Position numbers and translations under genes: made by a program
The notes under the pieces: generated by a model
What the model was told of the DNA's origin: nothing
Databases searched by the model: none
The model's input: the letters and a program-made list of their open reading frames with translations, nothing else
Assembly: GCA_022703585.1 (NCBI GenBank)
Contig: JAKLDJ010000005.1
Span: 5,353-69,352 of the forward strand
Direction: 5' to 3'
DNA: 64,000 bases
Source: Candidatus Omnitrophota bacterium
GTDB lineage: Bacteria; Omnitrophota; Gorgyraeia; Zapsychrales; JAKLDJ01
Shown here: positions 61,471-62,895 of the stretch, piece after piece
Numbering within the stretch: the stretch's first letter is position 1
Layout of the letters: every line of letters starts with the position of its first letter

Positions 61471-62895
61471 TTACTTACACGGTGGATGATTGCAGCCACC
61501 GCCGCTGCTGCCACCGCTGCTGCCCCCTTGATCGCCCTCGGGAACTACCGATATATTCGGCACATCCGTTTTGCGGTTATGAACAATCAACCCGTTAGCA
61601 ACATACGTATGATACGGATTGACTTCAAAGTTATAAACATCGACCGTCTCCTCGACCTTGGCAATATCAACAATCGGAACTTCTTCGCCTTTCGTATTGG
61701 TCAAGACATCTCCGACTTTAAGCTCTCCAATTTGCTTCCACTGCCCCTTTGTTAAAACTACGTGATTCGAGGTTACTTTTAGATTACCATTAATAACCAG
61801 ATAAGCACTTTCTTTAGGATGGAAAAAAACTTCCTTGACGGTGTCCGGCTTCATTAAATCAGTATCCGGATCATAAGACAACACAACGTCACCTACTTTA
61901 ACCGCTTCGATAGGTTTTGTAGAGCCATCGGCCATAGTAATGATCGTGCCGGCAAGGAAGCAGCTCGGCGGCGGTGGTGGTGGCGGAGGCGGTGGTGGCG
62001 GATTATCATTATCCCCTTCCCCTGACCCGTCCCCACCGGGCGGTTCGGTAAAGGTTGTACTTGTTACATCGCCGCCGATAATACCGTCCGGGTCTCCTGG
62101 AGCCCCGCCCCCGGAGCCGATACCCCCGGGTAGATTATCCCCTGCCGCAGCAAAGTCGGTAACATCAGCGACACCGTCCGTCTCAATGACCTCTTCAAAA
62201 AGGTTTGCCTGGCTGCCGTCATAACCGTCGATCAAATTCTCCGCCTGATTCTGTTGGATCGATTGATTAATTTGTCCTGACCAATTCTGTAACCCCTGTA
62301 ACTCTTCAGGTGAAAGCGGCGTTACCTCCCCCAGCAAACCACTGGGATCGATTTTTAACGATTGACCTTCACCCACGTTCTTTTCTCCGGTCATCCCTCC
62401 GCCCGCACCAAAACCCTGAACATTGATCATGTTTTCCGTGACGTTAAACTGTGTTCCGTTGTCCACGATGCTCTCCCATGCCGTCCCGCGCACCCCGGCA
62501 ACAGCCTGGGGAGTAGAAATTTCAAATTTGGAGCCGGGTTCCAGCCCTTTAAGCTGGGCAAAGACACGCCCCTTGGCAATACGGACTTCCTTGAATAATT
62601 TCCCCAGCGTTACCTCAGAGTTCGCACCGACGCTGACAATATTCTTATAGGCAGAATCAAGGGCAATGTCGCAACGGGATTGAGTATCCGTTTTAATAAC
62701 AGCGTTTTCGCCAAGCACCATCCCTTTTTGAGCCGCTTCCCATTTCTCTCCCGAAAGATTGACAGAGACATTCCCTTCCATATGAGAAATTTTCGGCTGA
62801 TACGGCCCTTGTGCCTGCTCTTGGGCGGCAATCGGATGCGCACTGAAGAAAATGAGGGATAGAAATACCCCTGCGAAAAGAAACTTTTTAATCAT
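61471..62895 (-). CDS. Secreted FecR-domain protein with poly-Pro/Gly linker and C-terminal Hint (Hedgehog/intein-like) domain
   Basis: 474 aa with a signal peptide and an N-terminal FecR-like beta region. A linker (GGGAPGDP...PPPPPPPPPPPP) precedes the Hint block A, CFLAGTIITMADGSTKPIEAVKVGDVV. The terminal block is HTYVANGLIVHN. A short Gly/Ser/Cys tail follows. Confidence 0.65.
   Translation of the reverse strand: MIKKFLFAGVFLSLIFFSAHPIAAQEQAQGPYQPKISHMEGNVSVNLSGEKWEAAQKGMVLGENAVIKTDTQSRCDIALDSAYKNIVSVGANSEVTLGKLFKEVRIAKGRVFAQLKGLEPGSKFEISTPQAVAGVRGTAWESIVDNGTQFNVTENMINVQGFGAGGGMTGEKNVGEGQSLKIDPSGLLGEVTPLSPEELQGLQNWSGQINQSIQQNQAENLIDGYDGSQANLFEEVIETDGVADVTDFAAAGDNLPGGIGSGGGAPGDPDGIIGGDVTSTTFTEPPGGDGSGEGDNDNPPPPPPPPPPPPSCFLAGTIITMADGSTKPIEAVKVGDVVLSYDPDTDLMKPDTVKEVFFHPKESAYLVINGNLKVTSNHVVLTKGQWKQIGELKVGDVLTNTKGEEVPIVDIAKVEETVDVYNFEVNPYHTYVANGLIVHNRKTDVPNISVVPEGDQGGSSGGSSGGGCNHPPCK

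Follow-up and report, generated by a model that had tools for sequence, protein, structure and literature searches.

A predicted type A bacterial intein-like Hint domain at the C-terminus of an Omnitrophota FecR-domain protein

Bacterial intein-like (BIL) domains of type A are defined as Hint domains that keep the C-terminal His-Asn pair and have no nucleophile at the +1 position, with cleavage as the dominant reaction and splicing by aminolysis (PMC4031507, PMC7664689, PMC7765530). In type A splicing the amine of the released C-terminal piece attacks the thioester on the N-terminal side, and type B BILs are without block G (PMC4031507). Here we describe a gene in a 64,000 nucleotide stretch of a Candidatus Omnitrophota contig (JAKLDJ010000005.1, assembly GCA_022703585.1, positions 5,353 to 69,352; the whole stretch is referred to as the window) that encodes a FecR-domain protein with a C-terminal Hint domain, predicted on every sequence criterion to be a type A BIL. 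The domain belongs to the BIL/PT-HINT class that is already known, and it is the FecR cargo and the poorly studied phylum that are new.

The domain of solved structure that is closest in sequence is CthBIL4 of Clostridium thermocellum (2lwy), a type A BIL with which the window Hint shares Cys1, the T-x-x-H motif, block F (VYNF…H-TY) and the terminal His-Asn; both are mini-Hints without an endonuclease and neither has a +1 nucleophile. Domains of this type lie in variable parts of proteins that are not conserved and typically extracellular (PMC7765530), and the window Hint is similarly placed, behind a disordered linker in a variable region of a protein with a putative signal peptide. It differs from CthBIL4 in its cargo and host phylum, and in being near-terminal, with a tail of only 34 amino acids (aa). 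BIL2 of Tetrahymena thermophila BUBL1 (6y75/6tmm) is the top fold match; its last residue is Asn, and a Lys amine takes the place of a +1 Cys, Ser or Thr (PMC8616854). BIL2 is eukaryotic and cytoplasmic with ubiquitin-like flanks and Zn-dependent activation, whereas the window protein is bacterial and predicted to be exported, with a short unstructured tail and no ubiquitin-like flank.

More distant comparisons are with polymorphic toxins, Hedgehog proteins and inteins. The Hints of polymorphic toxins (CdiA, RHS, MafB) belong to the same Pfam family as the window Hint and lie near the C-terminus of exported proteins, and the BIL domains of CdiA are autoproteolytic (PMC4725963). The window Hint, however, is followed by neither a toxin domain nor an immunity gene, and whereas toxin-bearing relatives are 30-40% identical to it, those with 55-67% identity are toxin-less. 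Hedgehog/Hog domains (1at0) share the Hint fold and are likewise C-terminal on a secreted cargo that is released through a thioester, but they are without the terminal His-Asn chemistry and have a sterol/adduct recognition region. A Hog-type Hint was considered for the window protein and rejected, as the tail is a low-complexity segment of 34 aa, the His-Asn is kept and the TM score is 0.76 compared with 0.90 for BILs. Mini-inteins (Mtu RecA, Npu/Ssp DnaB) have the same fold and the same blocks A, B, F and G, but inteins need Cys, Ser or Thr at +1 and occupy conserved sites of essential proteins, whereas the window Hint has Arg at +1 and sits behind a disordered linker.

Family, fold and class of the Hint domain and its cargo

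An earlier note on this DNA, made from its letters alone, proposed that the open reading frame (ORF) at 61471-62895 on the minus strand encodes a secreted FecR-domain protein with a C-terminal Hint autoprocessing domain. The reading frame has exactly these coordinates, with an ATG start and 474 codons before the stop, and the elements quoted in the note are all present: 12 prolines (aa 299-310), a nucleophile block, a C-terminal block and a G/S/C-rich tail. Direct inspection shows that CFLAGTIITMADGSTKPIEAV begins at C312 and that HTYVANGLIVHN ends at N440; the tail, estimated in the note at about 35 aa, is RKTDVPNISVVPEGDQGGSSGGSSGGGCNHPPCK and measures 34 aa. An assembly artefact is ruled out as the source of the fusion: exactly this protein occurs on 18 public contigs, DAOOUB010000002.1 of GCA_035390605.1 among them, and P0001, an orthologue with 79% identity from an independent sample, shares its architecture and gene neighbourhood.

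The Hint module described in the note, for which it suggested a Hint-profile search, is recovered above the curated cut-off and at a level well past what chance would give. Pfam PT-HINT (PF07591) scores 51.3 bits (cut-off 27.7, E 1.8e-13), with aa 319-440 covering positions 2-136 of the 137 in the profile; there are weaker Pfam matches to other Hint families, and NCBIfam intein_Cterm (TIGR01443) scores 19.3 bits (cut-off 15.6). A phmmer search of PDB sequences has 2lwy as its best match (E 8.4e-13, aa 312-440), followed by 8w20 (the Hint of a large toxin-like protein), 6y75/6tmm (E 2.5e-6) and mini-inteins. For aa 312-440, an AlphaFold2 (AF2) model based on 26 aligned related cores is all-beta with a mean pLDDT of 96.5 and a pTM of 0.89. 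Foldseek comparison of this model gives 62 PDB matches at E<=1e-3, the top listed being BIL domains, inteins and Hedgehog (TM 0.65-0.91): 6y75 leads (TM 0.91, 28% identity), 2lwy has TM 0.90, a root-mean-square deviation (rmsd) of 1.8 Å and 33% identity, the mini-inteins lie at about 0.82 and Hedgehog 1at0 at 0.76.

The catalytic set is complete (C312, T375-x-x-H378 and H439-N440) in a mini-Hint of 129 aa that carries no endonuclease insert. On alignment, Cys312 occupies position 1 of block A, where the note had asked for a conserved nucleophile, and it is the sole Cys within the Hint and one of four in the protein (C75, C312, C468 and C473). The note had left the choice between BIL types A and B to the state of the C-terminal residues. 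Because His439-Asn440 is present and the +1 residue is Arg441, not a Cys, Ser or Thr nucleophile, the domain is assigned on its sequence to type A and not to the inteins; type B was ruled out by the same terminal His-Asn.

The FecR-like N-terminal domain is also confirmed. Pfam FecR (PF04773) matches aa 66-156 with 32.8 bits (cut-off 24), matches to DUF7354/MtxA_N falling below the Pfam cut-off, and the AF2 model of aa 33-195 is all-beta with a pLDDT of about 90. Its best Foldseek matches are 6ovk, the C-terminal cell-surface signalling domain (CCSSD) of PupR, and 4m0n, the putative anti-sigma factor BDI_1681 (E 2e-6 to 1e-5, rmsd 2.7 Å), so that the cargo shares both Pfam family and fold with FecR-type signalling domains. 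There is also a resemblance to the FecR-domain surface proteins of Leptospira (Lsa33, LipL45), in that NCBIfam Lsa33, a Leptospira FecR-domain adhesin model, matches aa 25-219 (E 3.5e-13), although far below the cut-off of the model.

Unlike PupR and BDI_1681, the window protein has no cytoplasmic anti-sigma domain and no transmembrane helix. Its N-terminus consists of a basic MIKK, a hydrophobic core (Kyte-Doolittle 2.65 for aa 6-16) and AHPIAA followed by Q25, and in an AF2 model of aa 1-298 residues 7-17 are helical, flanked by stretches of low confidence. We read this segment heuristically as a putative signal peptide, and the protein is probably exported via Sec; a hydropathy reading of the whole sequence gave no second hydrophobic segment. 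A FecR-type anti-sigma factor was ruled out, there being only a 24-aa signal-like sequence in front of the domain and no other hydrophobic segment, and for the same reasons the cargo is read as a stand-alone exported FecR domain. The Gly/Pro-rich spacer of the earlier note is also present: the linker has 17 Gly, 17 Pro and 10 Asp among 82 residues and is predicted by AF2 to be disordered, with a pLDDT of 30-35 from aa 229.

The wider Hint clade and selection on the domain

The 129-aa Hint core was searched against 1.84 billion representative proteins, giving 16,267 matches at E<=1e-3, 3,081 at E<=1e-10 and 168 at E<=1e-30. Counts of junctions, tails and tandem copies refer to the best 150 proteins of the 16,267. 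Among these the Hint starts with Cys in 275 of 279 domains and ends with His-Asn in 224 of 231. The +1 residue is most often Lys (147/231), followed by Ala, Arg, Gly and Ser; Ser or Thr together account for 16/231 and Cys for 0/231. Among 100 domains of the close clade, Lys is found at +1 in 59%, at +2 in 32% and at either position in 83%, compared with 2-6% at positions +3 to +5, and Cys, Ser or Thr occupies +1 in 4%.

At least two Hint segments are present in 79 of the 150 proteins, and complete tandem copies mostly lie 2-5 residues apart. Arrays of 2-11 copies are seen, for example, among P0063-P0208, in P0071 (1285 aa, 11 matched stretches) and P0063 (2780 aa, five), and also in P0002, P0003 and P0005 (two each); one junction between copies reads …VAHN-KP-CLLAGT…. 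Proteins with a single Hint have short tails, no longer than 40 aa in 58 of 70 and with a median of 14, and tails of fewer than 3 aa are absent (0/149). We note that one protein of an archaeal genome (L035) ends with …LVHN-K-stop. The cargos of 66 short-tailed members include Ig-like and PKD domains, pilin N-methylation motifs, S8, C1 and C25 peptidases, glycosidases and beta-helices, and no toxin domain is among the Pfam families listed for them.

When species-representative genomes were scanned, the closest copies turned up chiefly in Omnitrophota, Planctomycetota-labelled metagenome-assembled genomes (MAGs), Candidate Phyla Radiation (CPR)/Patescibacteria, and Thermoplasmatota or DPANN-type archaea, with multiple Hint copies in some of the genomes. 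Carriage of the clade by viruses was considered and set aside, viral contigs giving only Hints of at most 39% identity over a full-length match. More distant relatives are RHS or toxin-bearing PT-HINT proteins, with C-terminal toxin regions of more than 100 aa, and true inteins with a +1 Cys or Ser. We found no open-access paper in which Omnitrophota, CPR or DPANN are connected with Hint or BIL domains; the subscription literature was mostly outside the scope of this search, which makes it a weak negative, and we do not claim the clade as undescribed.

Some individual members were also noted. Two are from Omnitrophota MAGs: a classical RHS/TcdB-type protein (L009:2-5899, plus strand) has a clade Hint followed by 505 aa, and an LVIVD-repeat/Ig surface protein (L006:2-4429, plus strand) has one at its end with a 15-aa tail. 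A clade Hint of 39-48% identity is also contained in alpha-2-macroglobulin (A2M)-like proteins of about 1,700-1,850 aa in CPR/Patescibacteria-type and some other MAGs (L031:785-6286 on the plus strand, L023, L025, L027, L028, L032, L038-L040, L042, L044 and L045). They carry it at a conserved site that separates the bait-region domain from the A2M domain, with E, D, A or Q at +1 (…YVHN then EKGG…); a self-processing domain directly behind the bait region of a protease trap is curious.

The catalytic residues are strongly conserved and the domain is under marked constraint. In 137 related terminal Hints, conservation of C312, T375, H378, H439 and N440 is 96-100% (Cys1 99%, T375 96%, H378 100%, His-Asn 99%). 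A codon-by-codon comparison of the window gene with the L001 orthologue gives a dN/dS of 0.034 for the Hint, the lowest of any segment of the gene, at 91% amino acid identity and with synonymous sites near saturation. Values are 0.067 for the FecR domain, 0.10 for the linker, which has indels relative to P0001, and 0.19 for the tail, the highest in the gene except for the signal peptide and with indels in its spacer relative to P0001. A decayed or merely structural Hint remnant appears unlikely, because the dN/dS is the lowest in the gene and the catalytic residues are near-invariant.

Likely processing of the protein and alternative readings

The reading that we consider probable is that the gene encodes a catalytically intact type A BIL on an exported FecR protein, with the Hint acting as a single-turnover self-removing module. 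The protein would be exported by Sec through the signal peptide (aa 1-24), and the 129-aa Hint would fold after export. Cys312, aided by Thr375 and His378, would turn the Ser311-Cys312 bond into a thioester through an N-S acyl shift, and Asn440, aided by His439, would cyclise with breakage of the Asn440-Arg441 bond. Because the +1 residue is Arg, no branched ester intermediate would form, and the thioester would be resolved by water or by an amine. Water would give a free FecR domain with its linker (aa ~25-311), and attack by the tail amine, as in the aminolytic splicing of type A BILs, would join the cargo to the 34-aa tail with its Cys pair; on both routes the Hint would be detached from the FecR cargo and no toxin delivered. 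C. thermocellum BILs splice without a +1 nucleophile, and from this and the published behaviour of type A BILs we predict mostly cleaved cargo together with some cargo-tail splice product. The identity, fold, catalytic residues, selection and architecture are seen in the data, whereas export, the reactions themselves, the balance between cleavage and ligation and the role of the module are inferences.

The C-terminal junction adds to this picture. In the clade sequences the terminal His-Asn is kept, it is never without a following residue, and Lys is preferred at +1/+2. These patterns indicate that chemistry at this junction, beyond release at the N-terminal side, is under selection, which favours a ligation-competent mechanism. 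We read the Hint itself as a shuffled self-excising passenger in a disordered linker, one that would be kept by selection because failed excision would cripple the host protein. Several points weigh against self-removal as the account of this protein. Cleavage and splicing, both here and in members of the close clade, are predictions from sequence, and export is deduced from a heuristic reading of the N-terminus. Self-removal does not explain retention by the hosts, the tandem arrays of 2-11 copies or the preference for Lys at +1/+2, and Cys312 could be blocked in an oxidising periplasm.

The Lys preference (83% of the 100 close domains at +1/+2 against 2-6% at +3 to +5) speaks for an unlikely alternative, thioester-driven ligation. 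The cargo thioester would be captured by the epsilon-amine of the +1/+2 Lys, giving an isopeptide branch, or by an external amine on an envelope lipid, the cell wall, or a partner or host-cell protein, leaving the cargo anchored or conjugated as in Hedgehog cholesterol transfer or with ciliate BUBL. The top fold match of the window Hint (6y75, TM 0.91) is BUBL BIL2, whose splicing runs through a Lys epsilon-isopeptide and which attaches its N-terminal cargo to other proteins (PMC8616854); clade cargos are surface or extracellular proteins, including pilins, and the hosts are mostly ultra-small or episymbiotic lineages. Yet the window protein has Arg at +1 and Lys only at +2, its tail is short, of low complexity and poorly conserved with no adduct-recognition region like that of Hedgehog, no conserved partner gene accompanies the Hint, any acceptor is conjectural, and a strict His-Asn would be unnecessary for transfer of the Hedgehog type. 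A broader form, in which the whole clade is a sortase-independent extracellular ligation or anchoring device of Omnitrophota, CPR and small archaea acting through a thioester and a Lys or external amine, is in our estimation distinctly unlikely. If it were true, pilins, adhesin-like proteins, enzymes and the FecR domain would be fixed covalently, and Hedgehog lipidation and ciliate BUBL conjugation would have an extracellular counterpart in prokaryotes.

Three further readings assign the Hint quite different roles. That autoprocessing has been lost and the domain persists as a stable C-terminal beta-domain, for example an interaction module, is quite improbable: some Hint-fold domains are non-catalytic, activity in the clade is predicted only, and strong purifying selection would also fit a structural role, but all catalytic residues are kept, C1, T-x-x-H and H-N are near-invariant across 137-279 domains, a scissile residue always follows the Asn, and inactive Hints are typically without Cys1 or Asn. 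Release of the 34-aa Cys-pair peptide as a toxin or signal, as from a pre-toxin, we regard as very improbable. The Pfam family is PT-HINT, distant relatives carry C-terminal toxin regions of over 100 aa, the Omnitrophota RHS protein L009 has 505 aa after a clade Hint, and CNHPPC is kept between the two orthologues; against this, the tail is largely Gly/Ser spacer without a family match, its dN/dS is the top of the gene outside the signal peptide, clade tails are heterogeneous and as short as 1-3 aa, and there is no immunity-like gene, the downstream gene being common to a Hint-less cluster. The suggestion in the earlier note that the cargo and not a toxin is processed is borne out by the tail without a family, a downstream gene that is not an immunity gene and the short tails of 58/70 relatives. 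The remotest of these possibilities is a classical intein, a selfish element whose standard four-step splicing would make an essential host protein whole again. In keeping with it are the Hint fold, the residues C1, T-x-x-H and H-N, and the similarity to mini-inteins (TM ~0.82), but transesterification is impossible with Arg at +1 (PMC4031507), the site lies in a disordered, indel-rich linker that is not conserved, in an exported protein that is non-essential, a homing endonuclease is absent, and BILs outscore inteins in both sequence and structure. A class 1 intein is thus refuted at its defining +1 feature, Arg441.

For annotation, the gene is best described as encoding an exported FecR-domain protein, most likely maturing by shedding a type A BIL. 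The pipeline label 'polymorphic toxin-type HINT' is misleading for this protein, and 'pre-toxin' would be wrong because no toxin is present. The wider value lies in the clade, with its terminal position, short tails, tandem arrays, near-invariant His-Asn and Lys at +1/+2. To our knowledge, the purpose of BIL domains has not been settled since they were first described. The conservation patterns turn it into a concrete question, the choice being between hydrolytic release, aminolytic splicing and Lys-directed ligation. As tools for protein ligation, mini-Hints that are free of toxins and do without a +1 nucleophile could also be useful.

Origin of the fusion, the tail and other features of the locus

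A search with the N-terminal 298 aa finds seven relatives, and only the closest, P0001, has a Hint. The six Hint-less relatives, two of which are short or partial, are 43-51% identical and include the syntenic P0004, annotated by one source as an Omnitrophota FecR family protein. The Hint/linker region of the window protein is where the orthologues differ completely, and Hints that are 55-67% identical to that of the window are found on other cargos, namely a glycoside hydrolase, pseudopilins and Cys-rich proteins. The most parsimonious scenario, because FecR relatives lack the Hint while close Hints sit on unrelated cargos, is that an ancestral FecR gene gained the Hint once, when domain shuffling placed it in the disordered linker.

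The window, the contig of P0001 and a 659-kb contig that carries the P0004 gene share a conserved neighbourhood, which reads S8 peptidase, a 416-aa protein, a 191-aa protein, FecR-Hint, a 142-aa probable lipoprotein, an 86-aa thioredoxin-like protein, PadR and acyl-CoA synthetase. In the P0004 contig the FecR gene, without a Hint, directly follows the S8 peptidase and precedes the counterparts of the 416-, 191- and 142-aa genes. The 191-aa protein has no Pfam or NCBIfam family, and the L001 and L002 orthologues of the ~416-aa protein give only sub-threshold matches to beta-barrel porins. In the window the cluster spans 60631-63689 on the minus strand and runs upstream past the window end (compare L003:6912-12817), and it is rearranged relative to the Hint-less Omnitrophota contig L002. 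The cluster looks like an envelope module, although the Pfam and NCBIfam families of its genes do not allow a specific function to be assigned to the FecR cargo.

The locus holds no Hint-specific partner or immunity gene, because the genes for the 142-aa and 191-aa proteins have orthologues in the Hint-less cluster (42% and 55% identity). No toxin follows the Hint, the 34-aa tail having no Pfam or NCBIfam match. A toxin/immunity reading of the locus was rejected on these two grounds, the tail without a family and the orthology of both flanking genes to genes of the Hint-less cluster.

The tail does have one conserved element. CNHPPC is identical in P0001, with two synonymous and zero non-synonymous changes, and three of the four complete Hint-less orthologues have C-terminal tails that contain Cys. 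This pattern fits insertion of the Hint upstream of an ancestral C-terminal motif, in which case splicing would reconnect the cargo with it. Short tails with at least two Cys are also found on unrelated cargos (14/87), and tails that are Gly-rich and then C-x3-7-C follow the Hints of P0008, P0011, P0014, P0124, P0140, P0150 and others and also end the Hint-less FecR orthologues P0006, P0210 and P0004; such tails might form a disulfide loop or a metal site or act as a sorting signal. The Hints closest to that of the window are mostly without Cys-pair tails. The Cys-pair tail may be either the ancestral host C-terminus or a Hint-linked cassette.

Table 1. Positions of the FecR-Hint gene, the parts of its product and adjacent features in the window.
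Feature	Position in window	Strand	Basis or remark
Whole gene, 474-aa FecR-domain protein with C-terminal Hint	61471..62895 (stop codon included)	minus	ORF list, ATG start
Probable Sec signal peptide, aa 1-24 (MIKKFLFAGVFLSLIFFSAHPIAA, then QEQ)	62824..62895	minus	heuristic N-terminus reading
FecR-fold beta domain (cargo), aa 33-195	62311..62799	minus	Pfam, AF2, Foldseek
Long alpha-helix behind FecR domain, aa 196-223	62227..62310	minus	AF2 secondary structure
Gly/Pro/Asp-rich disordered linker, aa 229-311, last residue Ser311 = -1	61963..62211	minus	pLDDT, composition
12 proline codons, aa 299-310, mixed CCN	61966..62001	minus	sequence inspection
Hint (predicted type A BIL), aa 312-440, 129 aa	61576..61962	minus	Pfam PT-HINT, PDB 2lwy, AF2, Foldseek
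Cys312, block A nucleophile; predicted N-terminal scissile bond Ser311-Cys312	61960..61962	minus	clade conservation
Block B, T375-S-N-H378 (T-x-x-H)	61762..61773	minus	clade conservation
Block G, His439-Asn440; predicted C-terminal scissile bond Asn440-Arg441	61576..61581	minus	conservation and TIGR01443
Arg441-Lys442, +1/+2 residues	61570..61575	minus	Lys at +2; no Cys/Ser/Thr nucleophile
34-aa C-terminal tail, aa 441-474, low complexity	61474..61575	minus	no family match
Terminal Cys pair, C468-N-H-P-P-C473	61477..61494	minus	identical in P0001
Promoter-like site TTGACA-17-TATACT, 11/12, ~110 nt upstream of start codon	63006..63034	minus	consensus scan only
Terminator-like hairpins in 128-nt gap downstream of stop codon	61375..61400	minus	consensus scan only
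Upstream neighbour, 191-aa exported protein	63114..63689	minus	55% identical to L002 counterpart; conserved cluster member
Downstream neighbour, 142-aa probable lipoprotein (…FSVGC)	60914..61342	minus	42% identical, E 1e-41, to 160-aa gene of L002

Among the minor features, the poly-Pro run (61966-62002) and the GGSSGGSS of the tail (61491-61524) are imperfect short tandem repeats in the DNA, and relative to the orthologue indels are present in the tail and in the linker segment directly upstream of the prolines. The position of these indels beside tandem repeats suggests that the length of the linker and tail varies by slippage. P0001 has PPPPPPPLPPP at the position of the proline run. Opposite-strand ORFs such as a Gly-rich one at 61940-62224 (plus strand) mirror the Pro/Gly-rich linker and were set aside. 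Used as tblastn queries, neither the Hint nor the FecR part detected a further copy in the window. An ORF-poor stretch of the window is accounted for by a complete rRNA operon on the minus strand at 33131-38624, with the gene order 16S, tRNA-Ile(GAT), tRNA-Ala(TGC), 23S and 5S.

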